NCBI GenBank assembly: GCA_037379345.1
Contig: CM074521.1
Span: 8,556,001 to 8,620,000, forward strand
Source of the DNA: Perna viridis
Lineage: Eukaryota
Direction of reading: 5' to 3'
Length of the DNA stretch: 64,000 bases
Below are positions 15,595 through 60,200 of this stretch, one piece after another. The position numbers were made by a program, and so were the translations under genes. Each line of letters begins with the position of its first letter. Position 1 is the first letter of the stretch. A model generated the notes under the pieces. That model did not search any database and was not told where the DNA came from. It saw only the letters and a list, made by a program, of their open reading frames with translations.

Positions 15595-17234
15595 TTAAGT
15601 TCGAACCGGTTTTGCTAGTAAGTTGAAGAAAAAATGTACGTGCACTTCTTACACGTACTTGAACATGTAAGGAAAATTCACTCGACGATAGAAACTTGTT
15701 ACCCTCTGAATATAGCGTGTTACTGTTTTTCAGCATACTACCTCGTAGTAGGCCGCTATAGTTATGACACGAACGATCAGTGGTACATGTAATGTCAAAT
15801 TTGGATCAATGTGCGTTCAAAAACGTGAGTCTCTAATCCCCCCGTATGATATTAAGTATTTGGGATAACCAAATTTAATATATATTGCCAATGTTAATAG
15901 CGTGAGGATCGTTTTTGTTATTGATTACACTGATTAAATTATCTACTAATGTACCTTGTCAAAAAAGATATTAACTTTCTTAGCTTTTTTATTTGGTTAA
16001 TTGATTTCGTAAGCCTTTATGCTAATTTTGTCACATTTTCTATCTTCAAGTCACTTAAAAGTGGATTAGAAAACAGAATTAATTTAATGATCATAGCTAA
16101 CTGTATTATAATTCAATTTATATGGATTTGCAACTAGAGTTGATGCACGATACGGAACTTCAGGTCTCGGTCTTGTATTCTTTGCCCCGTCGGCTTCCAT
16201 AATAAACCTTAAATTTTCGTGATTTATAAAAAAAAATAGACAAGGCGTTTCAATCTAAGTTTTGATCATGTTTTTCCATTTAGGAAATGTCAAAAATAAA
16301 TTTTAGGTCCATTCCAGAAAAAAAAAGCTTTGGTACACCAGAACAGGTCGACTAAAAAAGTCTTCTACTTTCACTTTTATTTTGAGTTCTTAAAATAGAC
16401 TTTTTTTCTGAAGCATTATTTTTAATGAGACTACCGTTTTTCCTCAAAAACAAGTTTTTTTTTGTTTCATAGCTTGATATTTACCTTGTACTTTTGGTGA
16501 AAAATGATAATCATTTGCGAAAAAACAAAAACAGGAATATGTAATGCAAGACTGCTATCTTCAACTCTACCCTAATGGCTGAAACTACAGTTTTTTTCTC
16601 TATACATGAAAAAAACATGCACTGTAATTTTCATTATAATATTTGTCTACAACATTTTTTAACCGTGATTGGGTGGCTCTTTTCCCGAATTCCCGTCATA
16701 TTATCAAGCAAGATAAATGATCGTGAACAATCTAGTTAGTATGCACGAAGAATGATATCAAGAATTTGTTACTTTTTCGACAATTCCGACAAATCTGCAA
16801 CTATTAAGTTTGTTAAAGTTAAAACAAACGAATCAATGATGTCTGTTAATATGATTTATCATTTGCAAAGGAAGTTGAGTAATGCGGCAGATGGTTATCT
16901 ATCTGTTCACAATCATTCATCTCGCTTGACGTTAGAATCGGGTCTTACTTTTTAAAAACCAATACATGTACCATTGTTATGTTACATTCTAAATAATTTT
17001 ACAGTAGACAATATTCTGATTTCTAAGCTTCTTCAGTTGGAATGCACGAACGAATACTGTAGATCATGCGCGTTGTAATGTAACTAATAGGCTAGTGACT
17101 TGCTTCCAGTTTAACGTAATTACAACCGCGGTGTTCAAAGCCTTTGTACCTCATACATAAAGCGTAACTATGTTAACACGGTGAAATTATCACCTCATAA
17201 TAATACAAGTTCACGTATATTCAAGATATAAGAT

Positions 17235-27589: not shown

Positions 27590-30500
27590 ATGCCTGTAAG
27601 TGAGAGCGAAGCAAATAAAATCTATGATGTCTGTGATGCTAACAAGGATGGAGTTGTGACAAAACTAGAACTTCTAAAAGGACTAAATAAATACTTTTCA
27701 CAATCTCTGTCGGCTGACCAAGTAACAGTAAGTACTTTTAATACTAGATTGAAAGGGAGATAATAAATACTATTGCGTTTTCCCTTTAAATAGATTAAAA
27801 CGCTTGCATACTTTCTAGTGTTTTTATTTACAAAGAGAAAGACTGCCTTTTTGACAAATTTGAAACGGCATTGAATAACTGCATATTGCTGAAAATCTAA
27901 AGAAGTTCACAGTTGCATATACATTTTTATGTTAGAAGAATATTTTTTCTCTTCAATGGAGCTTAAGAAAGTTGAAAAGGAAACAAAAAACCAATGAGGA
28001 GTTACATGTTATTTTATTTCTCGATAAAGTTACGCTTGGTAATGAACTTTTTGAAGAAATTACCAGGACATTCCATTGGAGGGGGGTATATACCCTCCTT
28101 TGTTGGAACATTTTAGCAAAACAAAGCAAATAATAGCATGTACTCCCCTTTTTTGGAACCCTTGTGGAAATTAACCCCTTTCCAAAATCTCTTTACCTAT
28201 CCTTGCATCAGTTTGTGTCATTGCTAAGGGTTAGCGGAATACTTACCCACGACTGATGTTTGATAATGTATTGTGTCATTGACAGGATATGTTTATTGGT
28301 CTAGATGAAGACGGCGATGATAAAATAACAAGAGCAGAATTTGTCGGTCAACTCTGTCATAAAATGAACAGACGGTATGTATTCACTTAATTACAGTTGC
28401 TCGGTATAGACCCAGTGGCAGATTTATAGGAGATCCGGGTTAATTTGGAACCCCCCTTTTTTTTTTAGAATTTTTATTTTTAGTTTCCTGAAAAATTTAG
28501 GCAAAAATTGAACAAACAGTAGCCTAGACTGCCCCTTTGTCAAATCTCTAGATCCACACCTGACACATGCGCATGAGACACATGTAACTTAACTTAAGAT
28601 TCACTGTTGATTGGTTAATAAAAGAAATCAACAACAACAAAAGACATAAAATGATAAACATACTGCAAACAAATAAACCTTTTTTTCATATGTCATTTTC
28701 AGGTTATTGCTGTATCTTTGAACATGTCGGTATTTGCATAAGTTATGCGATAATCCCTTTGGCGTAGTCGACGAGCATGCTTACTACACACTTCCGCAAG
28801 GATAATTCTTTTGAGTTTACATACATTAGGCATTTTTATCGACTACTCCACATTTAACACGAAAAAAGTCTATTGGTTTTTACAGTTTACAATTAAAAGT
28901 AATTGGAATTACATATATGATATGCAAGTATGTTGATTCAGTCCTGTACCATACTTGATATGCATGTACTTATAATATACATGCATGTTTCGAACCATTC
29001 GGATATATGGATTGTACGTATACCTTTATATGATGTGAAACGTATGCACATTTTCACGAATATCATTAAGTATAGTTTGCCCATACGCATGGGGTTTATG
29101 TCATCAACAGGTCGTGGAAAACAATGCTAGATTACCATTTGAGTTCCTCATTTTCCCCAATACTCAGAGTCTTCTTTACATCAATTTCCAAAAGATGTTG
29201 TATAAAAAGATGTCAAAATGTATGTACAATTCTGTATTCAGTTATAACCAGTCATACATGTAAATGACGATGATAAAATATTCCTACGTCATATAGTGGA
29301 TTCTTCAAAACATCAATCTGTATAGAATGACATGTACCTGCCTTGTACACTATTTTTCACTCCCTTAATGAGGTAGACATAGGGTACGGGACACAACTCT
29401 TACAAATCATTGGAACGTTTGTATTAAGCATTTTATATCAGTTTTATGTAAGCATCAAAGTAACTTGGATTGATGTCATTCTGATTCAAATGAAAGATTG
29501 ATAGGCTTTGGTAAAATTGAATATGATGTATGATTTCAAAAGTTAAGTCCCTTACCCTAGGTCTACCTTCTTTAGATTTCATTAAGGTCTGTATGTATAT
29601 ACATGTACATAAATGTATTTAATAACGTCAGCGGTTCGTATCTTAACAAATAACTTTCAGTTGCAGCAAGTGGACAGACAGGTGAGCCGAAAGCCTACCT
29701 ACCTTCAAATTTGGTAGTGGGCAGGAAATTGCCTTGTACTGTGAAAAAAATTTGTGGCTAGGAAGACTTAGTTATTGACCTTGGTCTCTTTTACACATCG
29801 CCAATTTCTCATCTTATCGAGCGAGCGTCAAGATGGAACATGATGAAAATTAAACTACTTTTAATTTTAAACTGATACCATCTTCATTCAGATATAAAAC
29901 TAAAAATTAAAAGAAAACAAATCCTTGAAACTGAAACTTAACACAGTTTTCTTAAAGAAACCGGCAATTTTTTTATACAAGGGGGCAGCTTTTCGAAAAA
30001 AAATCAATATTTGAGCAATTTGTTTGTACTCAGCCCTAGGTAGCAAAAATGTATGATTCAATAATTTTCCCATCACTTATATCATTATATGAAAAGAAAA
30101 AGTCTGTTATACCTATGACGAACAGTTTTTGGTACCATGGAAACGAAAACCCAAATCCATTAAAATTCAGCATTTGAGAGTCTTTTTTCGACTTTATGGA
30201 AATGATTGTAAAATTCTATGAAATGAATTGCCGAAACTACGCAGACTTTTTGTATCGCGCTAGAACTCTAACAAATAGGCTTCTGGAACAGGGTTATGTT
30301 GCTACAAGATTGAAGTCGTCACTACAGAATTTTTATGGTCGTCGTCATGAACTCGTGGATCGTTATGGTGTATCCATCTGCACCATGAAAACTGATTTAT
30401 TCAACGGGTTATAGTTTTCCTTTCCTCGTTTGTCTACCCCGGACTTGACTTTTTATGAGCCACTTGGCGGGTGTTTCTAGAAAAGCAGAGGACGCTTACC

Positions 30501-31327: not shown

Positions 31328-34300
31328 TTAACGCCAAGACTTGTCACTCCATATAGTCAGATATTCTTTGACAGCAGAAGTCAGGTTTTCTATACCTTCC
31401 TTAAGTTTGTCCTCGGTACAGAAACTTATAGAGATCCGAATACAGTTACTGAAACTGCCTGTAGGTGATGTGCTATAAAGTTAAAATAGCGGTTACAATT
31501 ACGGCTACATGAACAAAAATGTGTAGGGTTGGGTTGCAATAAGTAAAACATGAAGATGAAATTAAGAAAAGACATTTAAACCTCAATAAAAGCAGAACAA
31601 CAAAAATACGTATAATTTACTTGTGGGGCATACTAGCTTTTTTTCTTGGAAGAATTACGTTGATGTTTATGTTTAGTGAAGCACACACATCAATAGTATC
31701 CTTTGTCTAAACTTTAACTGATCCGATAAGCATACACATAAAAACTTAGCCTTATCTGTTTACGTCAATTATGATTGGATAAGCTTAAATACCGATCGTA
31801 AGCCCTACCTAGGTACGTCAATTGTGATTGGATAAACACCCTCTTCAATAGTAAGCCTCACCTGGATACACCAATTATTGATTGGATAAGCTCAGACATC
31901 AATCGTAAGTCCTATCTAGATACATGCTTTACGTCAATTATGATTGGATAAACACACACACACATCAATAGCAAGCTCTACATAGATATGTCAATTATGA
32001 TTGGATAAACATACACAGCAACAGTAATCCTTACCTGGATCCTATAATAAAGTTGACGCCATGTTTCTCAATGGCAAGCTGAAGGAGCAACTTAGAATCT
32101 ATATTAGATGGCAGCTCTATCCACAGGAAGAAACCACCCTGGAAATATAAATTTTAGTAAGGTTTTAATGAAAATTTGAAAACATTGACCGTTGTATTCT
32201 TTAAAGTTCATAATGGTAAAAATATTAAAATACTCATGAATGTCAGTGGCACATTTCTACCAACACATTTTTGTTAGGGTGAAAAAAAATCTTCGCGATC
32301 GTCGTCAAAACTATGTTTAAACTTGGAAAATCCGGTTTTTATATTCCTTGATGAATTCACAAAACAAATTCGTAAATAAGACTATTCGTGTTACTTTAAT
32401 TTCAGGTCTGTATTTTAGCAAATCATTTAGGGTTCTACAAATCTAAATTGTACAGATGTGATTCTAGCATCGCCATGTTGTACATCGCCGATTGTCACAA
32501 ACTGGTCTCCATCGAAGTTAATTCAACTTTGACATCGTTGTGAAATTCCACAATGTACATTTACTTAGATGATGATCAGATTAACACTTTGGGCACCTCA
32601 ATAAATTCAACTTTATGCTTTTATCAAAGAAGTAAACATGCACATGTCATAAAATTATCGTAACTCGTAAACGCAAATTGGTTTTAATGTAGAAAATGGA
32701 TGCCCTGTCCGCAATCTGCTGAATATTTTGGCGGACTAGTACGAGTAACACACATCCACGCTCACTCCAAAATGAAAGGCGTAGTAGCAGTAAGGGCCAT
32801 TTTCGGACATTTTTTTTCTCTTTAAACTAGTATCTTTGAATTATTTGGATCGATTTTCCCGAAGAATTATGCTTGATCTTTCATTGCAAAACATTCGAAA
32901 GTAGGTCCGTTATAAAAGAAAAGTACATTTTGGGCTTATGAAGTGGCATTTTATGTCATGTTTGCTGATTCCAACAAAAAAACACAATCGACTTTCAAAA
33001 AAATGAACCAAAAACTGAACCTTACTGACCTATTCTCAAACTGTTGTTTTCTAACAACAATTAAATTAAAAAAAAACGAATTCTGTAACCTTGTCCAATA
33101 TTGTTCATATAAAATATGGTAGATTCTTTTATTATACATTATGTGCTTCTGTCATAACTTCTATGAGCATGAGTGACACATATCCGGGAGGTAGAAATTT
33201 GGGTAGAACAAAAAATTTCTTTGTTTACTTCACAATTAAGAACAAAGTGGCATTTTTTAATGTTGACTACTGCTGAAAAACTCAGAAAATCAGAAGACTA
33301 GATACAAATGGTAAAGTATAATGCTTACCTCGGGCTCCTTGAATTTAATAGGTACAGGGAAATTCTCGGATATGTAATCACTTACATATTTCATTCTCGT
33401 CTGAAATATAATGTATGATACTGGTGTTGAGTTTGCAGTCCAATAATGATAATCCGGAACGAACTTCCGAGTCATACTGTGTAGTTTGGCTAAGAATTTT
33501 AATTTCGGGGGACACGCTTTTTTAATTTCCTTACATGTACACCATGTTTAATCAGATTTGGGGAGCGAGGGGTACTTGGAGCAAAATTTAAGATATAACC
33601 GAAGAAATAACAAGGATTTTACAAAAACCTCCCAAATAATATTTTAAGATGTGCTCAATCAAAGCATGAAATAAAATATGGGGGTCACTGAGCAAAAATA
33701 TAGATGTTATGAAATGGATAAAATCAGAGGAGTCCAAAATTCTGATATAAATGGCTGAACATGACCACTACATCCTCAACTCTTAAAGTTTTACGAACAC
33801 GGACCAAAATGGTGTCATGTGTTCATGTGCGTCATGATGACGTATTTATTCAACTATCGTGTTCTGCTTCCAATTATAGCAATACATGGTGAGACATCGA
33901 GATTATGATGTACTAAAACAGACGAAACTGACCCTACTAGAGCATACGGTCCTTACCTAATATAATTGTTTAACTGAGTCCGAGTTGCTTATTTTCTTCA
34001 GTTTTTATCTTCTGATTTTATTTTTTTTACAAATTTTTTGTATGTTTTGATGTTTTTATCATTTACTTTTATGAAGAAATTTTTCAAAAACCACGCATTA
34101 AACATACCCCATATATTCCTTTGATTTTGTTAAGGTGTGAAGTCACCATCCCTTCCTTCAATGCTGTCTTTAGTAACCGGGACGTGTAATGGTTAAAACA
34201 ACCTCCGCTCCATGTTGTGTTGCTAGAATATAGAAGCATCATCAATTGATTTATTGACTGACTGATTGATTGATTTTAGTTTTACGTCCTTTGAATTTCA

Positions 34301-38800: not shown

Positions 38801-41800
38801 ATTTGTGTTTTAACAAGGGTTACAGACCTATTGGTTATGATTTTTAGATATGTTTAATTGTGTTATATTTTTTTACAGTGGCCAGTGTTAATAGGGGAGT
38901 GTTGCCATCACTCCAAAGTACTAAAAGTACTTTAACCCAACCGCATATTTTGCTCATGTCTCAAGTCAGCAGTTTCTGGCCTCTGTATGTTTTGTTTAAT
39001 GTTCACTTCAATAGATTTTACTTTATTTTGCTTAGTTGTTACTTTATTTTCCTGGAGTATATAGGGGTAACTATTTTGATGTACCCGTGTATACTATTAT
39101 TATTGGACCAGCTGCAGTCTGCCCAGTAGTGTGAGGGTTTCCTCGTCGTTCATTGAAGACCCATGGGTGGCCTTGAGCTGACATTTTTTAAGTTGGGGTT
39201 CAGAGGGTTGCCTTTTTTTACATAATCACAATATACATTCTTCTTATATTCAATGTAAAAGAATAAGAACAAACATTTTACCAGAAGCTTATAAATGTGA
39301 AAAAAGTCAAGATCTAAACATAAGGAGGCAGATCTAAGGTAAGGGAAACAACTCTTACACAACTCTTACACATTATTGAAACGTTTGCGTATCAATCTCG
39401 TGTAAGCATCAAAGTAACTTGGATTGATTTAATTCTGTCTCAAATGAAATCTTGGTAGGCTTTGGTGAAATTGAATATGATACAAACATATCACTGATTT
39501 CAAGATTTGTGTCACTTAACCTAGGTCTACCTCCTTAAAAATTCAAGACGCTAATGTATAAAAGTAATCTTAGAATTCAACATTCCCGAAAAAATTTCAC
39601 CTTTGTACAGTATCACCATATTGCTGGGTCAGAAACAAGGCTAGCTGTTCCAGGAAGTCTGGATCTCCTCTCATTGGACCATACTGGAATATGAAACGTT
39701 CATCTTCTGCCTCCTAAAATACGTAAAATAGCATGGATATTTGTAACTACAAGAGGATCGAGGATTGACAACCGTTTATGTTTGAGGCATGTGCTATATA
39801 CCTTTATTTTTATTTTCTTAATTTGAATATTCGAATGCGAAAAGAAAAAGTGAGTTTATAAAAATGTTTAAAACCGTTGTTTACATCCTTTGTAAAATCG
39901 TAGTTATAAGTGGCTTGCTCCCACTATCGAATATGCAGCTCGACTAATATAACTCGGCTTGCATATTTCTAACTGACAACTGTACAAAAATTAGTTCTAT
40001 GTTCATTACGGTCATTTACAAAAGAAGTTCAAAGAGAATATCATATTGATGACACCTTTTATTGTAGTGTTAAAATCTTATATATAGAAACCCTATGTAA
40101 TTTGCCCTATATCGCGTGCCCTGTGTTGCATACTCTATATCGCTTACCCTAAATAGCATACCCTATATAGCTTACTCTAAATAACGTACTCTATATCTCG
40201 TGTTGATACAGCATGTGATACAGGTAGATTTCTACATGTAATATTCACTATGACTATATTAAATGCCCTCGTTTCTTCGAAGCTGAATTGCGTTCTGTGG
40301 TGTATACTCTACTTATATAACTCTTATATATAATGATGAAAAAACAAGAATACACAAAAATAAAGTAAAGCACGTACAACAAACTTTGGAGTGTCATCAT
40401 ATTTAAAAATAATTTAATTTCAGATGTAACGAGCTTTCTGATTGACCAAATTTTGCTATGTGACTGTGACGTCAATAAACCATTTTTGATGATTTACTCG
40501 TTAAATTTTTGTACTAAAATTAAATTTTATCAGTCTATTTGAAATAAGCTCAATGCCCGTGGTGCGAAATCGAAATTATTTCCTCGTAGTTACAAATTTC
40601 TGAAATTGAGCGAGCCCATGATTTAAAGAAAGTAGGTACAGGAGTGTTCATGTACAGTACAAGTAATTTTTTTTCAAATGTGAAAATCAGACTCAATCAA
40701 TAAATGTACACAATGACATGCAGGGGTGGATCCATGATTTGAGTTTAGGGGAGCGTTAATTGAATAAAATGCCGTGCAAAGCAAGGCAAAAAATATAATG
40801 GGGTGAAACTTGTGAATTTTTTTTTTCTTACCGATTTAGGGGGGCGGGCGTACGCCCGGTACGCCAGTCCTTGGACCCGCCCCTGACGTGTATAATAATC
40901 ATAATATACGTATTTATTTTTGCATGACATGTGCGCACACACAAAGAAGAAAACTAAGTTTAAGAAATAAAAACTTTGAGGCCTTCAGCTGCATTAGGTA
41001 AGGTCGAACCCGACTGGCTCTCGTTTACCACCAATATATACTGAATATTACATGTCAAAACCCGTATGATATGTCATATCGACCCTAGATAACTCACAGT
41101 ATCTAAATAACCTCAAGGGCTATCGGCCAAGGGGTGATATAAGTCGAGGGTCTATAAGGTATATGCTACGTATAGATTTTGATATGTATTTATGTGACCT
41201 CACATTCGTTATCTGATTATATTGTATTTCATGCAAAAATCTTGAATTCTGATTGGGTAATGGGTGATCAGTTATTTTAGTCTATTCCCTGCACATTCTT
41301 ACTTGCCCCGCCTCCACTAAACAGTGATTAGTGGATCGATATATCACCCCGACGGCAGCGATATATCACACGATATAGCACCCTCCTCTAGGATATATCA
41401 CCCTCGAAGTCACGATATATCACACTATCGTATTCAGTATAACATAACACATACTGCCTGTAGTAGAGGGTGTTACGCATCGTATCACACTCTGTAAATA
41501 TATCACCCTCGACTTCGTCTCAAGTGATAAATTTACCTCGTGTAACACCCCCTAATACAGGCAGTATGTGTATAATATAAGATACGCAACATAGATCAGG
41601 TTTTTGATATAGGGAATGTAATAGGGTAAACATGTTTAGTGTAAGAGATACAGGGTTTAAACAATCACTTATCATGCATAAAAAATCGTGTATTTTAATC
41701 TAAATATATACTGAAGTCGAATAGATGCATACAATTTATAATATAAGGATGCGCGATTGGAATGAGAACTATTTTTCAGTTCATGTAGAATATGATTGGG

Positions 41801-42287: not shown

Positions 42288-43267
42288 TTTTCATTTGCTT
42301 TGTAGACAGCGACAGCTCAAATATGACATGTATGGAGGACCAAAGGCGTTATAAAATGTCATACGACTAGCTGTTACACTCTTCACTGGGGAATATGGTT
42401 CATAAGTCTCGTCATATGACTCCGTGGTTTCACGAGAGTAGATCCTAGTCTACCATTCAATCTTTAGAGATTTGCCATTTTCAGAGCGTTAGGTTCAGTA
42501 TTAAAAGCAAAACATATTTTCGTGTAAAAAATACCCATAAAAATGACAAATAAATATATTCACATGACAAAAGTGCAAAGACAAAGTGTAAAATAGAATG
42601 TTTAGCATTGTAATAAGCGTTTCGAGATCCTAGAAGTAAACAATAAAATGCAGACCGGTTTTCGGGTTCTCTCTTATCCCCGAAAATTTACCCTTATCCT
42701 CGAAATTAAAACAAATGATATTCCAGTAGTGGGCTTAGTCCAGTACAATCCCATAAATTTAGTCGTTAAACTTGGTCAATGTCATAGCAAGTGTATGAGT
42801 CATCAACATAAGGGTTTTGGAGAGCTAAAAGACAAAGTAACTTTGAATCATAATAATTGTTATTTCATTGTTTTGTTTTGTTCTGTTTTTTTAATGAATA
42901 TTCATGTAGTTGAAAATTTTCACTTATTCGACTGATGCTGTTTCGGTGGTTAGTGCATAAACAACATTATTTTAGAAGAATGAAGGATAAGAGTATTGAA
43001 TATTTCGAGGTTATGAGTTAAGTAGTACCCCAGCTAAGAATCATGCAATGTTATGCATGGTAGGCCAGACTACATATCTTTTTTTTTTGTATTTTGTTAA
43101 AAAATGTATGGGAAACAGAAATTAACATATGGCTGTTCAGATAACCCATGTTCAACCCTAGACTCCTAATGCATGTAGTAAATCAAATCACACCAAAGGT
43201 CAGCGGTCAAAGTGGTGAATATTCATAAACTGGGATTGGAGAGGGCCAATTACACCATGGAGCAGAG

Positions 43268-43436
43268 TATTATGATATTGATGTGTAATTCAGTTATTTC
43301 AGAACACGGTTTTCAGATATCTGTCAATTTGTAGTTCTTCTCATATTTTTGTAATAATAAGTTTTCTTATATTATAATTATTTCATATGATTACGGATTT
43401 ATACTTCAGTGATGTCCGGAATCGCATAACATAATA
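43268..43436 (+). repeat. 5' LTR (169 bp)
   Basis: Identical by eye to 51580..51739 except a 9-bp insertion (cggaatcgc). Termini TATTATG...CATAATA. Confidence 0.92.
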
Positions 43437-43437
43437 A

Positions 43438-43956
43438 CAAAAATTCCAGGAACTTTCATCTAGACATCTCACTATATATATTTGGTTAGGGACATGCGAT
43501 TTAACTGAGAAACGTGGGAAATATGTACATTTAGTGTCTACAGGGAATGAACAAGTACAGCAAATCTGCGATAACTATAAGAAAATATACAAATATTTCC
43601 CAACAGTTAAATTAGTTTTCCTCGAAATTTTGTTTTATTCTGTGTTTTTGTGGAACTTGTCAACGGGACACCCGCAACCAGAAGAATTCCGGGAAACAGA
43701 TAAGATCCTTGAAGGACAAGTTTCTCAAGTTAATAAATTTATTAGGGAAACTAACTTACTTCTCAGAGGAAATTCACCGAACTTTGGACTTGATTTTCAA
43801 AGAGTAAGGAAACATGCAAACTGTGCACCAGTTTACTCAAATAATTACGGACTGTATATAGATGGAATTCACCCTCACCCGGACTTAGCACGTCTCTGGT
43901 TGATCAGAATTATGACACGACTTGTTGAGGACTGTAAAAATACAAATTTGTTATAA
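43438..43956 (+). pseudogene. 5'-truncated SGNH/GDSL hydrolase-like ORF inside the Gypsy element
   Basis: Frame is open from 43438: ...TIYIWLGTCDLT (block III-like)...LYIDGIHPHP (block V DxxH). Block I (GDS) is absent. Confidence 0.75.
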
Positions 43957-44009
43957 TTCCAATTTTGATCGTCTCTATTTTATGCCTGTCTATGTAGTAT
44001 ATAGGGAAG

Positions 44010-44122
44010 GTGAGATTTATCTCATGCCCACTGCCCGATTATAATGTGAGATTTATCTCATTTAATACACTGTAGTGACATTTTTCCTAGCATTACTTAT
44101 AACAGTGTGAGATTGATCTCAT
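44010..44122 (+). promoter_or_regulatory. Array of three GTGAGA-N4-TCTCAT hairpin motifs
   Basis: Copies at 44010, 44046 and 44107 with unrelated spacers. Confidence 0.7.
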
Positions 44123-44199
44123 CTCTCAGACTCTGCAATGTAGGTAATTTTACCCATTTATTTTGTGTTATTGTTCCATGCATATATGTACATGAATCT

Positions 44200-45453
44200 A
44201 TGTCGTCGCCCGAATCAGATGGTGAGAACGAATTAATTTTATCAGACGATTTTCTGTTACATAACCAAACAACAAGTTGAACAAGATATCGGTTATCTAT
44301 TACAAAATTCTTCAAGAAATTCACACGATCCTTTCGATTTTGGAATATTTGAAATTTCAGAACAGGATGAACAGGACATAGATTATTTTTCGCACGATCC
44401 TACAAGAAATTTAAACGATTTTTTTTATTTACCTGAGGTAAATACACCTGCAACTCCAGCTAGGTTACAATTACATGTAGGTCCAGATAACTTACAAAAT
44501 CATAAAATTATGGAAAAATTAGCAAGTTGTAGAAACTTTGGTGGCTATCCTCATGAAAAGGCATCTCAGTTTTTAGCCGAATTCGAATCAAATGCAATTC
44601 TTCATAATATTATGCCTGATGAAGATGCAAGAAAAATAGCAGTCCTTCATTTACATTTGTGTGGACCAGCCCTTACATGGTTTAACTCGTTAGGGTCTGA
44701 TAAATCTTTTTTGGCGAAATTTCCTACGCATATTCAAACAAAAGTACACAGAAGTAGATCTAAACAGCCCAAGTTTATTGCTTGAAAGTGAGGCATTCTA
44801 ATCTACAAGGTGGACACAAGGACAAACCATTGATGATTTTTATTCTCAGCTTTTAGAAAGAGCTACAATATTGCATAAGAATGATAATGAAATTTTGATA
44901 AAATTTATCAAAGGGCTACCGGATCAGCTAGCCTTTTTCGTAAGAGCAGGTAACCACACTGACAGTTCAAGCGCATTATCTGCAGCCAAAATGGGCGAGG
45001 CCTATGGGTACCGGTCAAGCAATATTCCGCTAGTGGCCGCAGCTAAACCGGTCACAAATAAAAAATCAGTTTGCAAGTGTTCAAGATTTGCAAAATTTAA
45101 AAGCTAGTGTTCTTGATGAATTTCAGGGGCAAATTAACTCGTTAACACAAGCAATTTCTAATTTGAGTACAGATTTGTCACGTCAAAAAGGTGGAAATAT
45201 AGAGAATCATATTTCTCGCCCTCGAGATAGAGGCAACATGACACCAACAGCTCATAATTTGTGCCGAAAGTGTAATTCACCGGGTCATTTTGCACGCGCG
45301 TGTAACTGGAATGAACAGGGCAATATATATCCCAAAGCTCAATGTAATACTTGTGGACAATCTGGCCATAAAGCGCCCCAGTGTGTTAAATATCGTTCGG
45401 GAAACAAGAGGACCCCGGGGTTCACAGAGCAAGACCCCCGGGAGGGACGTTAA
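44200..45453 (+). pseudogene. gag: gag, with stops and frameshifts
   Basis: FLAEFES...LHLCGPALTWF and KFIKGLP capsid-like segments. Knuckles CRKCNSPGHFARAC and CNTCGQSGHKAPQC. Confidence 0.88.
45399..45442 (+). promoter_or_regulatory. -1 programmed ribosomal frameshift signal (gag-pol)
   Basis: G GGA AAC in gag frame, followed about 8 nt later by the GC stem cccgggg...ccccggg. The -1 frame is open into the protease at 45597. Confidence 0.8.
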
Positions 45454-48400
45454 GTGAAAATGACGTAGAAATAGAAGCCCGTGAATCAAAGTCTAATTTA
45501 ACGTCACCAGAACCAGAAAATATTAATTCACGTACTTCAACAACTTCACATTTTGGTAGCGATCATGACATAAGTAGTGAATTTAAATTTCTTTATTTGC
45601 CTGTTAAAATTTCTAATCACGAGATTTCAGCACGGATAGACACAGGAAGTTCTATAAATGTAATTTCAGTTCAACTTTATAATTTAATACCAGACTCCTT
45701 CAAATCTAAATTTACTGCCACAAATGAATATATTATTTCAGCAAATAACCAAAGGGTTCAAATCTACGGTACTGCCGATATTAAAGTTTCTACGCCGAAT
45801 GGAAAACATTGGATAAATGTGTATATATTAGCACAAACTTTTCATCTATTCATTTAAGGAACAAGTTACCTAATTTCACACAAGGTTATTCTAGACTTTA
45901 CTGATTTAAGCGGTGGATCTAAGCATTTTAAGGTAAAAACACAACATGAAGTATCTATTCCTCCCAATACCGAAATATTAGTATGGGGGAAAGTTGGTGG
46001 AAAAGCCCGGTTTGGAATGCAAGGCCTGTGTGTTATTAAAATAAATCAAGACCGAGGCGTTATTATCTCAAAGGCAATAGTTACTGTAAATAATGATAAA
46101 CTTGTACCTGTTAAAATTTTAAATTTTACAAATGAGATTGTCCATGTGAATAAAGGACAGATTTTAGCTGATTTAGAATTACTATCTAAAGAACATATAT
46201 GTATATCAGTAAGTGACGATAGTGACACTCATTTTGTGCAAAATATTCAATTAGCAAAGGACAAATTAGATATAAAATGTGAGACAGCTGACTCTAAATT
46301 GTTGTCATATTTTAATTTGCCTGATCGATTATCGGAACAACAAAAGGCCTGTATGGTTCAATTATTACAATCTCACAAGGAGATTTTTGTAACTGACGAG
46401 AATCCTAATTTGGGATACACAGACATTGTGAAACATAATATTTGCCTTAATCCTAATTTCCAACCTAAACATCAGCGATCGTACCGATTGACTCCGGAAA
46501 AGAAAGAAATTTTAAGGCACCATCTAGATGAACTTATGCGCCAGGGAGTAATATCTCCGGTTGATGAATGTGAGGACATCCCTATTACAAGTCCCATAGT
46601 ACTCGTTTCAAAAAGAGTTCATGTGAATAATTCTTCAGAAAAAATTTCCAAGGAAAATAGTTTATCTAAATTTCGTGTTTGCTGTGATTTTCGATATTTG
46701 AATAGCCAAACTCAACATTTTAGTTACAGTATTCCTGATTTGCAAGACTTGACAGAGTCTTTTTCAACAAAAAAGCCAAATTTTCTAACTTCCACTGATC
46801 TCTCTTCTGGATTTTTCCAGCTTCCAATTGTAAATGACAGTCAAAAGTACACTGCATTTAACACGTGCTTCGGGACGTTCAAATTTTTTAGATTACCGAT
46901 GGGACTCAGTTCATCGCCACCCTCTTTCCAACTTTTAATGGACAAAGTTTTGAAGGGACTTACTTTTAAGTCATGCCTGTGTTATCTCGATGATGTACTA
47001 ATAGCGTCGGAAACTTTTGAGGAGCACATCAGTGATTTGAATGAAGTTTTTACTAGATTAAAAACTGCGGGTTTAAAACTAGGCCCCAAGAAATGTGTGT
47101 TTGCTCAAGAATCTTGTATTTATTTGGGACATAAAATTTCAAGTAGAGGAATTGAGCCACCCCCTGATCGTATTAGGGCACTCGAGGATTATCCGGCGCC
47201 AAAAAGTGTTAAGGAATTGCGCCGTTTGATTGGTCTTCTCAACTGGTTCCGCAAGTACATACCCAACTATAGTGCAGAAATGGAACCCCTAACAAAACTT
47301 TTGAAAAAATTCGTCCGTTTCGAGTGGAAAATTGAACAACAACGAGCATTTGAGAGAGTAAAATCATTATTGATAAATTCACCTGTTTAAGCTTTTCCTG
47401 ATTATAACCTACAATTTCGCATTGCAGTTGATTCTTCAAGTAAGGGAATTGGTTACTTATTATATCAAATTGACGACAACAGTGAAGTGCGAGTTGTAAG
47501 ACTCGGATCAAAAGCGTTGAGTAGATGGCAAAAGGCCTATGGACCAACAAAGCTGGAAATGCTTGGAATGGTAACGGCTGTGCTCGAATGTTCATCTTAT
47601 CTCCGGACTAAACCATTCATAATTGAATGCGAGCATCAAGCTTTAAAGCCTCTGTTCAATAATCGTCTTAAGGGTGCGATATTCGAGCGCTGGATAGCAA
47701 TTCTCCAGCAGTATAATTTTGAAATTAAATACAAAGCTGCTAAAGAAATGCAAGTTCCTGATGCACTGTCAAGATGTGTGCGAAATTCAACAAATACATT
47801 CGACAGTCCAGAAGAGGAAGATCCATTCTTTCCTTATCATCAGGAGACAGCAGGAAATATAATTGTTCCGGAGGGAAAGCTATTTCCATCCATAGTAAGA
47901 AATGCGACATCAAGTGATGATGAAATTCCGCAAATAAATAACATTTGTTTGCCACATACAATGCCGAAAAATGATTTTACGGCAAATTTTCCTCACAAAC
48001 GACTTGATTTTAAATACTCTAATGAATTTGTTGCTAATACCGAGGATGTTGAACCAATTTTTAAAACATCGCCAGTAAAACAAAAATTGAGATCAAAGCT
48101 GCAAGCGCACCCCATTGAAACGAGTGTTCAAATAAAAGAAGTTCAAAAACCTATAAATTCAAACGAAGTCGGACAAACAGAATCTTCCGTAGCTAGGAAT
48201 GATATAGACATACTCAATGAGACGATTGACAATAAATTGAATAGTTCTTCCGATATTCAGGATGCATCTACAGAACCGATCCAAGTTCAATATTTTGATC
48301 AAAGTACAGAGAGCGCTGATAACTCAGCAGTTGGAAAAGTGTTTGATCAAACAACTGATATTGAAACTGTTAATCAGGAATCGAAAAATTTGCTATCAAC

Positions 48401-50108
48401 AGAAAAATGACGAACAAATTAATGATGCTAATTTGAACTCAATAAAAGTGTTACGTGAACAAGGGTTAACACGCGAGTCAATAATTAAGCTTCAGAGTCA
48501 AGATCAATATTGTAAACCAATTATTGAGTACCTAGATAAAGACAGACTTCCAAAATCACAAAAGGATTCAAGAAAACTTTTACTTTTCACTATATTGATG
48601 GATTATTGTTTCATTGTCGAACGAAAAAATCAGCTCGTACTAAAATAATGAATAACTACCAACTTGTCATACCTGAAATTTTGATTAAAAGTTTGCTTTC
48701 TTTGTACCATGAATCTACATTAGCTGGGCATAGTGGCATACGAAATACTTTGGATTTAGTTAGTGAACAATATTTCATTCCTCAAATGAGTCAAAAAGTT
48801 ACAAATTTTGTCCGTTCTTGTCATGAATGTCAGAGCAGGAAAAATACTACTTTGAAAACAAAAGGAAATGTTACTGCTTTCCCTACACCGTATGCTCCAT
48901 TTGAAGTATGGGAAATGGATTTACAATATGGTCCCGTTCCAATGTCTCGTTCTGGAAACGCCTATATTTTTACGGCGATAGATTTATACAGCAAATATAT
49001 GTTTGCAGAGGCTATTCCAAATACGGACCCACTAACAGTAGCGAATGCCTTATTTAAATTAGTTACTCAATTTGGAGTGTGTAAAACTATTGTGACCGAC
49101 CAAGGCTCGGAATTTATTGGAAAATGTTTCAAGGAAGTTTGTCGATTATTTGACATTGTACAGGAATATACACCCAGTTTCACACACCATTGCCTGGGAG
49201 CATGTGAAAGGCCACATCGAACTTTATCAGAAAGATTAACTAAGTTTTCTCCGTTTGAAGTGGTGTACGGGACAAAGCCTAAATTTCCATTATCTGTCCA
49301 CATTAAAGACACTGATTTCACGTCCTTACCGAAAGACTGTCATGAATATATACGTCAACATGTCGAAAAGCTGAACATAATTCGCAAACAAGTTGAGACA
49401 AATATTGTAACATCTCAAAGCAAGATGCTCGACAGAGTAAATAGTGACAAAATACCAACAAATTTTAATGTAAGTGATTATGTATATTTATTGAAGGAGC
49501 CGACGGGCCAAGGACAGAAGTATAAAAATAAATTTGCTGGTCCATATGTAGTATCAGATATTCACAGCCCACATATGTATAAATTGAAGGATCCTTGTAC
49601 AGGAAAATTATTTTCACAACCTATTCATGTTAATAGAATAAAATCTGCTTATATGCGTGTTCCTAATCCTTCAAATTATTTTCTTGATCAAGTTATCACA
49701 CAACAACCCGTGGAACATATATCTAGTGACATTGAGCATCAGTCGGAATCAGATAAATCACCAAGTGCTCAAAATAATAGTAATGAAAGTGAACACGAAC
49801 AGGCGGACAAGTCAGTTAATGAGGAATTATCGGATAGAGGAAGACCTAAACGAACAATTATAATACCGGAAAGATTTCGAGATGAAAATTTTGTGAATGA
49901 CAATGATATGAGTAGTGTTTCTGAGGACTTTTCCGAGACCATAATGAAAGTGAAAAGATTTCTCGCTCAGAAAACGGAAAACGGGAAAAAACTGTTTTTA
50001 GCTCATATAGTCGGAGAGCCTGCCCAGCACGCAATCTGGCTACAGGAAAATCAGTTGGGACCAAAGGCGAAAGCGAAATTAAATTCTCGCCCACCGCCAG
50101 TAGTATGA
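45399..50108 (+). pseudogene. pol: pol (protease, RT, RNase H, integrase, C-terminal chromo-like domain), disrupted
   Basis: In-frame TAA at 45855 and 47388, frameshifts near 48405 and 48590, and an apparent deletion in the integrase core after LSERLT. Confidence 0.92.
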
Positions 50109-50161
50109 TTTTGATGTTATATATTCTAACACGGATGCTTGATGTAACTTTGTAAATAATA

Positions 50162-50537
50162 TAGTCCGTGAGAATTTATCTCATGACTAGTTTTCGTATA
50201 TAAAACAACTCTTTGATTTGATATATTTAATTTGCTTGTGAGAATTTATCTCATAGCATCCGTTTACTGCAGGACCTAATTTTGGAAGACGGATTTTGAA
50301 CCAGTCAGATGCACATGCCTATTGTTAGTGAGATTAATCTCATAACAACGTTTATAGACTCTTATGTAAATATAAAATACATGGAAAGAATCCATAGAAG
50401 TTCTTATGCAGATAGTGCACCGTGAACATTTTTTTTTCAGAAATAATTATGATTGATGCAAACCCTGAATTTGATAAGTGTAATTATCCTCCAAGACGAA
50501 GTTGCAGTAACACATCTGTGAGATTAATCTCATGATG
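50162..50537 (+). promoter_or_regulatory. Array of four bulged GTGAGA-N4/5-TCTCAT hairpins
   Basis: Copies at 50168, 50238, 50328 and 50518, each with a different but complementary 4-5 bp basal stem. Confidence 0.75.
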
Positions 50538-51570
50538 AATATTCATATTGACTTTTGATACCAACGGACAATTTTGAAACTTTTGCTAAAATTTTGATGT
50601 TGATTAATTTGTTAGTTAATATTTTTACTTGAATATTCCGGCATCACTGATCAAGTTGTTGTGTATATTATAACCATATTTTTCATCACCATGGTGACCT
50701 ATTTTTACAACATTTTCATTGTTTCCGATTCACTTTTCCTTACATATAAGAACATTGACTTCAAGTTGAACACCATATGAAAGTATATAAATGCGTTTGT
50801 CTACAGTATTTTGTTAATATAATTTTTCACAAGTATTTACTTTAAAAGTGAATTTTGACATCTCAAAAATTTATAGTTGAAATTTTTAAATATTTTTGTT
50901 TGCAACAAAGAGTTTCAGTGTGGATTTAATTTAATTTAATTTAATTTTTTGTATTCAAGTCATAATTTTATATCAGTCTAGTAATCTTTAGTAGGACATT
51001 GAAGAGAGTTATGACCCCTGCCAAGTTCGATAATAGGTATATTATAGCGTTGTATCACAAAAGAGGTTGTATGATTTTCTGTCTATATGGTTATATATGT
51101 CACTCACAAATAAAACCTAATGTAGCAGTGCTTTTAGTGGTCAAATGTGAAAATGTGTGTGTGAAAATGCGAAATTCGTGTCTGGTACATGTAATTTATG
51201 TTTAAAAGAGAGTGAGAGAGAATGAAGCTGTTTGAAGTGGTCATCACTATACGCATTTTCTACTAAATAAGAGTTTTAAGGTCTCTAGTGATTCCATATA
51301 ATTTGTTATATTTAACTTGCCATTCTTTTGACGCATAGGATTATCATACATGTTTCACTCTAAATATGTGTTATACAAAAAGCTTACCGAGAATATTATC
51401 GCTATGATCTTGAGATTTGAGTTGAAAGTGGTTTTGATTTTAGTGTTATAGTAGTGTGTATCAGGTAATTGCTCAGTGGATAAGAGTGGTGGAAAATATT
51501 TTTTTTTGGTGGCGTATGAAGTGAGTTTAAAACTGAATCCCACATGTAAAATTCCGGGGAATTTTCTTCT

Positions 51571-51579
51571 GGTGGGGGA
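51571..51579 (+). other. Polypurine tract
   Basis: GGTGGGGGA directly abuts the 3' LTR. Confidence 0.8.
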
Positions 51580-51739
51580 TATTATGATATTGATGTGTAA
51601 TTCAGTTATTTCAGAACACGGTTTTCAGATATCTGTCAATTTGTAGTTCTTCTCATATTTTTGTAATAATAAGTTTTCTTATATTATAATTATTTCATAT
51701 GATTACGGATTTATACTTCAGTGATGTCATAACATAATA
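51580..51739 (+). repeat. 3' LTR (160 bp)
   Basis: Direct repeat of 43268..43436. Confidence 0.92.
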
Positions 51740-51897
51740 TACATGTACAGCCTCGTTTTGGAGAGTTGGAATAAAAATGTCGTTAAGATAAAACGTGGTT
51801 TTTGTAGAGCTAGTTCCCAATCCAAAAATACGGAAAATATAAGTAAAACCAAAGTTGTGACAAGAGGTCAACGTGGTGAATATTCATTGACTGGGAT

Positions 51898-54222: not shown

Positions 54223-57200
54223 TCAGAAATCGAGTACGATTTCATCATCTTGGGGTTTATTAGTTCCAAGTCGACTTATTCTCTGTGTTTTTCTCTGCTC
54301 ATAGAAATTACTCTGTCTTTTCCATTTATCAATCTTCTCTTTCTTTTCTCGTTTGAAAAAGCCGCACTGAAAATTAAGAAAAAAAATATATTTGTTTGGG
54401 GAGAAATTAAAAATATATATATATATTTATTTGGGGGAATTAAAAATGTCAAAAATGACTAGTATAATTGTTTTAACCACCACATCTTTTATTTACACGT
54501 AGAAAAATGGCGCGCTACGCAAAATCACCTGCATGTATTTCGATCTCTAAAGAGGAGATCTCCCTTCCTACGAAACATTTGGGGACATGTTCAGCTAGTT
54601 CTCGTCCGACTATTCTCATATGAAACAGTAGTGAGTAGTCAGCGGGTGGACTAGCTTAACATGTTCGACATCCTTTTCAGTATTGATTTTAAACAATGTT
54701 TTTGTTTTTATAATACATGTAGTAGACAGGAAGAACAAACTGGGATCAGTACAACAGGTCTAGGCCTACAAAGAGGACGTCATAATAATCAATCATTACA
54801 TGTATTTTCACACGTAAAACTCTTGTCACAAAGTATATGATTCCAAAACCTATGAAGCCGTGAACCAGTTCCACTTACCTTCCAGAGGATGACACCGAGA
54901 AGGATGAAAACGACCAGTCCACCAATCACACTGCCGATTATCAACCAAAGATTGATCTCAGTCTCTGACGTCACAATCTCAGAAGGATAAACGGTACTTG
55001 AAATCTTAAAAAAAATATGTTTTTCATAAATTATGATATAGAATAGGTGTATCCACGTAAAAAAAGTTTTTATTTGGTATAAAATGAATTTGGTCCAAAC
55101 AATTTGAAAGATATTTTGTAAATTAAACGAAAACATACCGTAAACATATATTTACTTAAAAAAATATTTTTGACTTTTTAGAAGTCGTTTTAGCCAGGCA
55201 CCCCTGTCCCCTCTATCCCTATTTAGATGTTGGTTATCTAGGCACCCCTGTCCCCTCTATCCCTATTTAGATGTTGTTTATCTAGGCACCTCTGCCTTTC
55301 TACTCAATTTAGATGTTGTTTATCTAGGCACTTTTGCCTCTCTATCCACATTTAAATGTCGTTTATCAAGGCACCTCTGTCCCCTCTATCCCCATTTAGA
55401 TGTTGGTTATCTAGGCACCCCTGTCCCCTCTATCCCCATTTAGATGTCCTTTATCAAGGCACCTCTGCCTTTCTACTCAATTTAGATGTTGTTTATCTTG
55501 GCACTTTGACTCTCTATCCTATCAAAAGTTTGGCACCACAAGTGCCCGATTTCGGTCTATTGTACTCGGGATTACGTATAGTGTTAAAAACATAAATATT
55601 TTTGTCTTTTTTTAACCTATTAACAGATCTGGCATCTATAACATTTCCAGATGTCAATTTCGTAACCAGACATATAATCTCTTCCTAATTTGTATAATGG
55701 TCTTGTGCTGAGAATGGTTTTGAAATAGCTTGTTTTATTTGTTTGTTGGGGTTTAACATCCGAGCAGCATTGAAATAGCAAATATACCCCTATGCGCATG
55801 TCCATATGTCTATGTCTCTTTATGGGGAGCTATTTCACTACATTCTGAAATTTCTGTTCAGAAATATAATTTGCATCGAAAAGCTCAGAAAAGAAGAAAT
55901 ATATTTTTCAACAGTTTGTGTTTCAGCAAATATACCTGGGCTGTTGTATTCACTTGAAGTGAATCCGGAAATGCCGACTCAGTTGGTGTAATAGTTGCAT
56001 TCGTGTAGTATTGAAACTCGGGAATCTACAACATATTGCATTAATTTAAGTAGCAGTCTTTGTAAATATCAGGCAGGAGGTTATTCATGCATGCATGCCA
56101 AATCCCAACAAAGTCACTTTCAGTTTTATTTCTTATGCAGGAGAGAAGAAACAGACCACACAATCAGACTTAAGGAGGTTGACCTAGGGTTAGGGATACA
56201 ACTCTTACAAATGATTGGAATGCTTGTATTCAGCATTTTATATCAATCTCAAGCATCAAAGTAACCTGGATTGATTTCATTCTGTTTCAATCGAAATCTT
56301 GATAGGCTTTGATGAAAATGAATATGATACAAACATATGACTGATTTCAAGAGTTATGTCCCTTACTCTACAGGTCTACCTCCTTAATCGTTTAGTTGTA
56401 CTTTTGAGATAAAAAATATAAGGTTGTAAACAAAATAGGGCTCTTTGCAAGAGTTATTTTTCTTGATTTAGCTGCACTGATTCAGGAGGAAGATTCTTCC
56501 AAAATGCAGATCTACATGCAGAATGAACAATAGCTAGTGTTTCATAAAAAATATGGTGTACATGTATGTAAAAGAAAAAAAAACCCGTCTCTTTCTTTCT
56601 GCACCACGAATCACCTCTGCAATTAGTAGTGTATAAATTGTATATGCTGTACTTAAATGATGAAATAGAAATATCACGGAAAATTAAAATTACCAATGCT
56701 AAATAGATTTGATGATATTTCATACCCATTTAGGATTTTACTAAGCGGGCTTATATATTTCACTCACTTGCTGTAATTGAAAAGCGTGGAAATGACCGTT
56801 CGAAATTATTAAAGACCCCCGTTTCCAAGGTGAGGGTATATAATGCTAGAGGTGTTTGTCCTTCCGTCCATACATGTACTTCCTTCCTGCCTTTCTTCCG
56901 TTACAGCGGGGGGAATCTTATTCATTACTCCTCCTATACTACTGAATGAAATTAAATGAAACTTTCCCAGAATCTTCATCACATTTTCCCACTGTGCAAA
57001 ATTCTTCAAACAGGAGGTGAACATCGCTCGAGTTAATAATCGAATCCCATGATATGGCATACATGTACCTATATAAAGCTTCTGCCAAAGTTTCAAATTG
57101 TCGTGATAAGTTGTTGTAGAGAAAACTAATCAGTAACAAAAAAAATGCGGAAGGACGGACACCACACTAATTATATACTACCTGTTTCTAAAGCGGGGTA

Positions 57201-60200
57201 TAGTCAATTGAGAAAATAGCGTTTGATTAAAAAAAAAAAAAAAAACACTTACATTTTTTATTCTAATGACCGATTCCGTCAGTCTGACAACAATCTCCAT
57301 CTCCGTTTGTTGGTTTACCTCCAGGGTGAATATACGACATTCTATAATCACACATTTAGGATCCAGCATACTTGAACATACCTATAAATTCACAAAATAT
57401 ACCCAGGTAGATATCAGAAACAGCTCTGCTCTAAAGGAGTTAAGGCCCAAGTTTAAGGCATATACCTTACAAATCATTGATACGTTGTGCCAGTCATTTT
57501 ACATATGTCCCACGTAAGCATCATTCTAGCTCAAATAAATGCTTAACAGGCTTAATGAAATTGAATATGAAACAAACATATTAATGATTTGACAAGTTAT
57601 TCCTTACCCTAAGTCTACCTCCTTACATACATGTACACATGCACGCTACACTTATGGCCCCATAATTTTGTGTTGGTGTCGTATTTATAATTCATTTCCA
57701 CCAATTTAAATTTTTCGTCCGAGATTTTTTCATTACAAAACAGAAAGTCTGCACAATTGTACTTATGGAAAAAGGTAGTATTAATTCCAGAAGTTAGGTA
57801 CTATCAATGACAAAAGCCCTAGATTAACAACAAAATTTCCTTTTCGCAAATTGTATGTCAGTAAACAATGCTATCGAGTAAACAGCTCTTTTATCTACTT
57901 ACAGCTTGTGACTGAGAAGTTATTCCACTGCTTTGAACCTCCATTTGTGAGGGTCCACCAACATGTACTCCAGGTACTAACTTAATTGAACAGTTCGATC
58001 TGGTATCTCTTGAAATAACCTTAAAATATATTGCCATTCGTAATATTATTTGTGACATACATGTATGCATAAAACTAAGTGATATATCAAGTAACCTCTC
58101 CCTCGTTTTTATGATTATCAATTCACCATGACTTACCCCTAACGCAGGTTTTACGGTTCTAACGCCGCTTTTTCTAACGCCGGTGTTTTTTTTTTAATTT
58201 TCAGTCATTTTCCGAAAAAAATCAGTGGGTAGCCTAAATAAATTACTATGATTTTGACAATTTAGATAATATATATAGAGATATGAGCATTCGGTACTAC
58301 AACGGTCAAGATAAAAGCAGTTGCTTGTATTCAGTGGTAAATGTGTACCGTTTTCTCAATCATTTGTGAAAAGCAAATATAATCAAAGCGAATTTTGTCT
58401 TTTTTTATAGCTTTTTCACATTAAAACGGTCTGTCGTCACCCTAAAAGGCATACATGTACCAACACCCCTTTTGTTATCACTTAGTCTGCAGAGTTCTCA
58501 AATTTCCCATATTGCTATATTTTCATACAGCCTTGCTGGCCGAGTGGTCTAGTGTGCTGGAATTTGTGCAGGCGGTGTTTCTATATATGTCACAGCGGTA
58601 CGAATTCGAGCCCCGCGGAGGGAACGACCAAAAATTTGAATCGCAAATTTGACTGTTCTAACATCGTTGTGAATTTTTCAGAACTTTCTGTACGTTTACA
58701 TTATCTCCCTGTATGGAGCAGTGTAGCAAATAGAGTCGTCACATTCTGAGATGTATATATAGTACAAAACTACGCCTAAAAAGTCTCAAAAAACGCAGAT
58801 TTAAGAGAAAATCCAACTTGAAATGAATTGCCACCACGACAATTGTCAACCTCTCATCTTTTGCTCTATCTGAAACTAAAACCAGGATTTTATCTAAAGG
58901 TTTGAATTTCTGTCCTACTCCTAACAATGTAGACGAAGTTCAACTTGAAGATGACCTATACAAATTTGCTAGATTCTTCAGGCTCAAAGAACATTTTGCC
59001 AACAAACATGAAGACCAGGACATGGACCCTGACAGTTCTGACTCCGACCATGAAGAAAATGATCTACACACTCGAAAATTACAAAAAAGAAAAATCCATG
59101 GGCTCCTGAATCGAATACATGTGGCACGCTACAAAAAGGTCATTGACGAAATAAAATCAGATGTCAAACATTTATCCAACAACTACATTCCATCTTTCTT
59201 CAGTATCACGCCCGATGAGAAAAAAAGCAATACAGTCGTTGAAAAACCGTGACGATAGAGTTATAAAACCAGCAGACAAATGCAGTGCCATAGTAGTTAT
59301 GGATAACTACATCTCAGAAGCAATGCGTCAACTTTCGGATGAAAGATTTTATAAAAAGCTATCCAGGGACACTACTAAATCTTTTAGTGAAAAAATCACT
59401 TCAGATCTGAACAAAATGATCAAGGACGGCAGCATTACTGAAGAACAGTTAGAATACTTAAAACCAGGGTATCCAAGACCCGGACGTTTTTACCTTCTGC
59501 CTAAAATTCACAAAAAGATATCTCTGGACGGCCCATAGTTTCTGCTAATAGTCACCCAACCGAAAAAAATTTTGAATTTGTTGATTACCATCTCCGACCC
59601 CTTGTTAAAAAGTTCCCGTCATACTTAAAAGACATCACGGACTATATGAGGAAAATGGAATCAATGAATCCTTTACATGTACCTCCCGCAACACTTCTGC
59701 TCTCCCTTGATGTCATTTCACTCTATACTAATATCCCACACGATGACGGTATAAAAGCCTGCAGAGAAGCCTGGGAATCACGAGATACTTTGGACCCCCT
59801 ACTGACTGCCTAGTAAATTTACTCACCTTAGTTTTGAAGTGTAACAATGTCACTTTCAACGACAAACACTACCTCAAAATCAATGGTACAGCTATGGGAA
59901 CCAAAATGGCTCCTTCGTATGCTAACATCTTCATGGGTAAATTTCAATATCTTTATCGAAACCCCTCTCCTGGTTTCGATTCATCGATGATGTTGACATG
60001 AAAGTTAGACAATTTTATCACATATGCCAACAATGTTCATACATCAATCAAATTCACCCATGAAATTTCTGACACTAAAATCACATTTTTGGATACCACT
60101 ACGTTTGTTAAAGACGGGGAAATGTCAATGCATCTTCACAGCAAACCAACCGATAGTTTACCAATACTTATCTCTCAATTGTTGTCATCCAAAACATTGT

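Follow-up and report, generated by a model that had tools for sequence, protein, structure and literature searches.

A truncated gene for a predicted SGNH esterase in a Gypsy retrotransposon of Perna viridis and its relatives in three retroelement groups

We found that a decayed Gypsy retrotransposon of the mussel Perna viridis carries the remnant of a stand-alone SGNH esterase gene, within the window (the whole 64-kb stretch of DNA that was analysed). At a probability of about 60%, we favour the reading that active relatives of this gene help RNA–protein particles to engage membranes and that RT drops or relocates the gene at stem-loops. The distribution of the esterase is wider than was first seen, with one family extending across Gypsy, BEL/Pao and LINE elements. 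A compact, soluble-looking family under selection in both LTR and non-LTR elements is tractable for substrate finding, and may thereby help to explain the repeated capture of esterases by retroelements.

The window element and its esterase remnant

The Gypsy element spans positions 43268–51862, with all of its features on the forward strand, and is flanked by identical AGAG target-site duplications at 43264–43267 and, directly after the 3′ LTR, at 51863–51866. The 5′ LTR (43268–43436) is truncated to the first 169 of about 292 bases and is 98% identical to positions 1–169 of the LTR of the C5 copy and 100% identical to 51580–51728. Comparison with the C4 and C5 copies placed a deletion junction at 43436..43437. 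This deletion took the end of the LTR, the primer-binding site, the leader, the first hairpin and the first 74 esterase codons, and the truncated LTR is fused straight to the middle of the esterase gene. A primer-site-like motif, TGGTGGAGA, stands directly 3′ of the LTR in the C4 and C5 copies and is deleted in the window.

The 3′ remnant of the SGNH gene (43438–43956, residues 75–249) keeps the GTCD and DGIHP motifs and has lost the block I Ser and the block II Gly. It is followed at 44010–44122 by three GTGAGA-N4-TCTCAT palindromes, likely RNA stem-loops (at 44010, 44046 and 44107), the first of which marks the end of the esterase cassette. The C4 copy lacks the unit of 36 bases that separates the palindromes at 44010 and 44046. 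Pfam and the open frames showed gag (44200–45453) to be broken in several frames, with a capsid-like stretch and two CCHC knuckles. Pol (45390–50108) has the Gypsy order of protease, RT, RNase H and integrase; it is interrupted by stops and frameshifts and has lost about 84 bases in a deletion. Four more palindromes lie in the 3′ UTR (50168–50533), those at 50169 and 50239 with 5-base loops and those at 50329 and 50519 with 4-base loops. A purine-rich tract (51570–51579), the putative PPT from its sequence, stands just before the 3′ LTR (51580–51862), which is whole, starts with TA and ends with CA. A CCHC gag, a PR-RT-RH-IN pol, LTRs and a short target duplication identify this as a Ty3/Gypsy element. 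The family A LTR begins with TA, not the usual TG, in both copies that have target duplications (window 51580–51862 and L051:1384–1675).

The original prediction described a frame of about 172 codons between the 5′ LTR and gag, free of internal stops and bearing WLGTCD and DGIHP motifs. A 172-codon open frame with both motifs does occupy 43438–43956 (+) between the 5′ LTR piece and gag. The further suggestion, that the frame was spared while gag and pol decayed, was not confirmed. The 5′ limit of the frame is a stop created at the deletion junction, 172 open codons are unremarkable, and the openness of the frame carries no weight because the RT and integrase frames of the same element are open for 510 and 522 codons. 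The sole Met of the window frame is residue 159, and blocks I and II are among the 74 missing codons. The C4 sister copy, which is 96% identical, has the whole 249-residue gene with a Met start and contains IISDSK, and it supplies the N-terminal part that a full-length copy had been expected to provide. The window frame differs from this copy by a deletion of 3 codons, and the substitutions (3.5 non-synonymous against 0.5 synonymous) show no sign of selection. The window copy is a dead, truncated fragment and cannot make an enzyme.

Other features were found elsewhere in the window. A MITE-like family of elements of about 220 bases with terminal inverted repeats occurs at 5446–5668, 12096–12327, 15380–15599, 29353–29577, 39309–39539 and 56159–56370, and long inverted repeats surround a 4-kb stretch of shifted composition at 58120–62343, possibly a DNA transposon. 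Tandem arrays lie at 4672–5110, 18755–19060, 22293–22664 and 31719–32042, with units of about 60, 27, 80 and 53 bases, respectively. A frame on the reverse strand (54789–55151) has a transmembrane-like stretch ending in LWK and presumably resembles an integrin alpha exon; the Gypsy element may lie in a host intron.

The esterase family and its element classes

An AlphaFold model of the intact sister protein, made with 20 sequences, reached a pLDDT of 91 and a pTM of 0.86. When this model was searched with Foldseek, the top matches were SGNH proteins (best E 1.7e-7), and structure comparison (VIA) aligned it to a natural chain, 4ppy, with Z 16.4 and rmsd 3.2 over 184 residues. The SGNH fold proposed at the outset is thus supported by the model of the intact copy. 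Neither the window frame nor the intact protein was assigned to a Pfam family, and Lipase_GDSL matched weakly in 19 of 117 members (best E 3.1e-5); therefore, the esterase family is invisible in routine annotation. PDB sequence searches with the esterase gave nothing significant, and a viral contig scan returned no relative. The family comprises 1559 clusters at E ≤ 0.001 and 739 at E ≤ 1e-10, and the named proteins among its near relatives are from Mytilus. Some members (P0187, P0056, P0013 and P0133) are either assigned to genomes of bacterial symbionts, in which case they are likely host DNA, or carry the wrong names argG and CXXC1 in Mytilus.

The family alignment contained 117 near full-length sequences, namely the query and 116 of the best 150 matches, with a median length of 243 residues and a median net charge of +12. 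Ser33, Asp219 and His222 occurred together in 114 of these; taken singly, the block I Ser was present in 116, the block II Gly59 in 107, the block V Asp in 116 and the His in 116. The block III oxyanion position was Cys in 114/117 and Asn in 3/117, and Lys directly followed the nucleophile Ser in 112/117. In canonical SGNH enzymes, by contrast, the block III Asn lines the oxyanion hole (passages in PMC10792757 and PMC3905857). Judged by this Asn, which most members lack, the family appears to be an SGNH-superfamily variant and not a canonical member. The triad is retained across about 30% identity, and intact relatives are predicted to be active acyl-ester hydrolases. We infer that the Lys after the nucleophile or the block III Cys stands in for the usual Asn, and the altered oxyanion hole may mean new chemistry.

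A search of the mussel's own genome gave 31 matches at 26 places, and 15 of the 17 places examined fall in retroelements. Twelve are Gypsy elements, comprising four of family B and eight in which the gene precedes gag or pol: the window element, the C4 copy, three of family C, C8:48.68, C5:13.09 and C8:49.18, the last of which carries a different, PNMA-like gag. In three BEL/Pao elements the gene likewise precedes gag, and two of these have it within LTRs that are 98–99% alike. Homologues bounded by LTRs were thus found, as expected if the gene belongs to LTR elements. The remaining two places had no retroelement gene nearby, and no intron-bearing host copy was recognised among the 17. Retroelement-type genes also adjoin the esterase in 18 of the 29 metagenome loci. 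These comprise three Gypsy loci, one BEL/Pao locus and 14 loci in which LINE-type genes lie behind the esterase; endonuclease or RT was present in 11 of the 14, and in the other 3 the contig ends after a PHD protein alone. The remaining 11 loci, many of them short, were left unassigned. In one metagenome locus, L071, esterase, gag and pol are all open. The esterase has an ORF of its own (about 243 residues) that precedes gag or a PHD ORF1, and is not a domain of ORF1p; no Ngaro context was recognised among the loci examined. At C7:34.91–34.93 Mb (L031, L032 and L058), about 14 kb separates two carriers of the esterase gene, one of them BEL/Pao and the other a Gypsy element of family C. Family C leaders (L058:1400–1560 and L038:4950–5050) contain tandem repeats of primer-site-like sequence.

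Between families A and B the esterase had a pN of 0.21 and a pS of 0.84; the pN of RT was 0.18 and that of integrase 0.22. Because dS is saturated between families, the comparison is given as pN and pS. The esterase diverges like RT and integrase, which argues against chance capture. The proposed calculation of selection pointed to purifying selection between families, and the copies within a family evolve near neutrally. The gene is linked to the window's RT clade, as had been suspected, and inside that Gypsy clade it is inherited with pol. In a tree of 39 of the 41 loci, the element classes were interleaved. One clade for the six Gypsy esterases was rejected (p-AU 1.8e-8, 24 near-complete rows), the tested group being defined by element class but after the first tree had been seen. 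The esterase of the Gypsy element with the PNMA-like gag (L067, C8:49.18 Mb) was sister to that of a LINE, L087, with support of 100/99, and this pairing is the clearest between-class transfer. Overall, the same stand-alone gene also precedes gag or ORF1 in Gypsy elements of another clade, in BEL/Pao elements and in LINEs of the PHD/endonuclease type, and it has been transferred between these carriers.

RNA reads covered none of the family A esterase, gag-side and RT regions in the roughly fifth to quarter of each of three runs that was searched, a sample that does not imply silence. The BEL esterase was covered at a depth of about 1 in one of the three runs, too few reads for expression or splicing, and no RNA dataset was listed as containing the window stretch.

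In the mechanism that we propose, a small basic esterase would be translated from its own frame ahead of gag, and it would be supplied in trans because many copies are without the gene. It would act at a step common to the Gypsy, BEL/Pao and LINE cycles, namely membrane or particle trafficking; a membrane role is suggested by analogy with the ZfL2-1 esterase and by the fact that these cycles share little else. The hairpins would bind Gag or serve packaging, and RT template switching at the stem-loops would drop or move the gene. The spread of the family thus points towards something that very different replication cycles have in common. A broader reading, which we regard as possible rather than probable, is that in bivalve-type genomes a large Ser-Gly-Cys-His family (739 clusters, E < 1e-10) serves as a portable gene, placed first, which Gypsy, BEL/Pao and LINE elements exchange and which marks such a shared step, and that the hairpins are programmed entry and exit points that make it a swappable cassette in one Gypsy clade.

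It is also conceivable, although unlikely, that the enzyme deacylates a host factor, protein or lipid, by which retroelements are restricted, hence its capture by unrelated elements. Such counter-defence would agree with the sharing of the gene by three element classes, with transfers, and with its being dispensable in cis, and the Cys beside the active site (114/117) could suit acyl-thioester chemistry. However, no candidate target can be named, and the strong conservation of triad and surface together with RT-like divergence would be unusual for an arms race.

Hairpins, loss and relocation of the gene

The palindrome TGAGA-N4/5-TCTCA occurs seven times in the window element, three times in the leader and four times in the 3′ UTR. 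A search for the motif with at most one mismatch gave 5 matches in the 64-kb window, all within the element and among them those at 44011, 44047 and 44108, and 0 in each of 5 base shuffles of the window. Palindromes were likewise found in families B and C and in L097. Their loops vary in sequence and in length (4 or 5 bases), and the closing bases in families A–C were G before and a pyrimidine after at 22/22 distinct sites (19 T, 3 C), which are related by descent and therefore not 22 independent tests. A sense-strand RNA stem fits better than a symmetric DNA site because the closing pairs are G-U or G-C; GTGAG also resembles a splice donor, an alternative reason for the invariant G. At L097 the closing pair was T-T at 7/7 sites. 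In the more distant L071 and L035, other repeated stems with G-U substitutions, read by eye, lie behind the esterase. Folding of the whole spacer produced competing long-range pairings between repeats and no clean three-hairpin structure.

The original prediction had paired esterase and hairpins functionally, and we consider it improbable that the protein is an RNA-binding partner of the hairpin array. The gene is hairpin-flanked in families A and B, the protein is basic (+12), and the OSK domain of Oskar, which binds RNA, has the same fold as the esterase model (Z 13.9). But the motif had 0 matches in the BEL/Pao loci L031–L034 and L069, which encode the same protein family, and no recurring copy was found in the LINE loci; furthermore, four family B copies that lack the esterase still have hairpins, as do all the 3′ UTRs that were visible in families A–C, and for these reasons we do not regard the hairpins as esterase partners. 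In addition, the catalytic triad is intact, unlike that of the non-catalytic Oskar (as described in part of PMC3905857). We conclude that the palindromes are an element-wide signal, probably one that binds Gag or serves in packaging.

Two leader hairpins flank the gene in family A. In the cassette the start codon is 19–41 bases past the site. The C5 copy has a 15-base spacer where the gene would be, with hairpins on both sides, and the same joint was present in a contig of a public DNA run; because the spacer matches neither parent cleanly, this junction is not counted as a clean crossover. In family B the gene was in the leader of 0/9 copies with a visible leader. The full-length C10 copy instead carries it after integrase, inside the LTRs, on an insert of 898 bases bounded by 17 identical bases that span a hairpin, and family B alone showed an after-pol position among the copies examined. 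The 3′ site is occupied in five family B copies (C10 and four deleted, partial ones) and empty in four, which have a single hairpin with joined flanks, one of them having lost half the hairpin. The families among which family B is nested have the 5′ position, so that there was at least one gain of the gene at a 3′ hairpin; the family B copy trees are star-like, with 4 informative columns, and do not separate insertion from deletion at that site. These data show one relocation from 5′ to 3′, the two ends of which fall at hairpin repeats. It documents at base resolution, as is rarely possible, how an accessory gene changes place within a retroelement.

Small inter-hairpin units of 36, 42 and 51 bases were lost exactly. 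Most indels of at least 10 bases between copies were not at hairpins: of about 80 listed rows, some of them redundant, 4 had a flag at each end. In family C, which lacks an upstream hairpin, the gene was lost through internal deletion; together with the window deletion, this rules out that every esterase loss took place at hairpins. The simplest cause of these changes is template switching at short repeats, helped by stem-loops, and host repair could be a source of deletions. One metagenome protein (P0006) runs in frame from esterase into the integrase C-terminus, as deletion from a 5′-placed gene would give. In the C4 copy, a 507-base repeat (L021:3100–3606) is inserted directly behind the first hairpin; this repeat has about 30 copies at 90–98% among the matches listed and RNA reads in 3/3 runs.

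Much less probable still is that the palindromes are DNA recombination sites of an integron-like cassette system, which would explain the filled and empty sites with hybrid flanks, the compactness of the cassette, with its start codon so near the site, and the variable short spacers between repeats. Against it, Pfam found no recombinase family in the element's 8 frames, a single gene was the only cargo seen, the loops have 4 or 5 bases, the G-T closing pair is asymmetric in DNA, and no such system is needed for the losses because ordinary repeat-mediated deletion explains them. A host origin of the gene as a mere neutral passenger, which its loss or breakage in many copies and its near-neutral evolution within families might suggest, is largely refuted by a pN far below pS between families and a triad kept at such low identity. 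In addition, no intron-bearing host copy was recognised among the 17 places, although two of these had no retroelement gene nearby.

Comparison with known systems

Whether this layout had been reported was left open by the original prediction. The presence of an SGNH gene in an LTR element is not new, because GDSL/SGNH genes have been described in bdelloid LTR elements (ORF3, in part of PMC5408684); this family and the 5′ layout, for their part, were not found in the literature searches. Titles and abstracts yielded nothing on a gene ahead of gag, a BEL/Pao location, the Cys variant or a hairpin-bounded unit, with Repbase, subscription journals and supplements outside the scope. The words esterase, hydrolase and SGNH are absent from the main texts of a mollusc LTR survey (PMC6238403) and the Mercenaria genome paper (PMC8905726), and such terms occur only in the reference lists of PMC9025612, PMC7599744 and PMC8557442.

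According to sections of PMC3187697, retroviral RT deletes sequence between repeats, more so with stem-loops. The losses seen here are similar in that sequence between direct repeats is lost, a process raised by RNA hairpins in the retroviral case, but the retroviral repeats described there are at least 50 bases long, compared with 15–17 here, where the gene was also gained at a new repeat.

SGNH genes have been described in other mobile elements, among them, as its listing indicates, a Helitron (PMC4021074). Ngaro tyrosine-recombinase retrotransposons likewise have an extra SGNH ORF, of unproven function in the portion of PMC9210276 that describes it; they differ in being split-direct-repeat elements with the ORF after the recombinase gene.

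In LINEs of the CR1/L2/RTEX groups, such as zebrafish ZfL2-1, the SGNH esterase is part of ORF1, and for the Jockey group it is reported only from vertebrate L2/CR1 subgroups (parts of PMC3905857 and PMC4120745). The ZfL2-1 esterase enhances retrotransposition but is not required for it, and a membrane role has been proposed (PMC3905857, in part). An SGNH fold, an intact triad and a 5′ position are common to ZfL2-1 and the family described here, and in cell assays the ZfL2-1 esterase is accessory and dispensable. However, as far as these excerpts describe it, ZfL2-1 has its esterase as an ORF1p domain with N195 in the oxyanion hole, whereas here it is a separate ORF before a PHD-type ORF1. A profile of the 117 members gave no match to the ZfL2-1 chain at E up to 10, and ZfL2-1 was not among the 50 entries listed in the structure comparison.

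A close likeness in an LTR element is that of the bdelloid Vesta elements, in which a GDSL/SGNH ORF3 with S-G-N intact follows pol and is shared with Athena/Terminon (passages of PMC5408684 and PMC6431247). As here, ORF3 is a stand-alone SGNH gene in an LTR element, occurs across unrelated element classes and has a proposed membrane role (PMC5408684, in part). By description, the two are set apart in that the Vesta gene lies after pol and keeps the Asn, whereas the gene described here is mostly ahead of gag, has Cys at that position and is shared with BEL/Pao and LINE elements. In summary, what appears to be new here is a distinct esterase family, its 5′ position, its sharing by three retrotransposon groups and one clean relocation.
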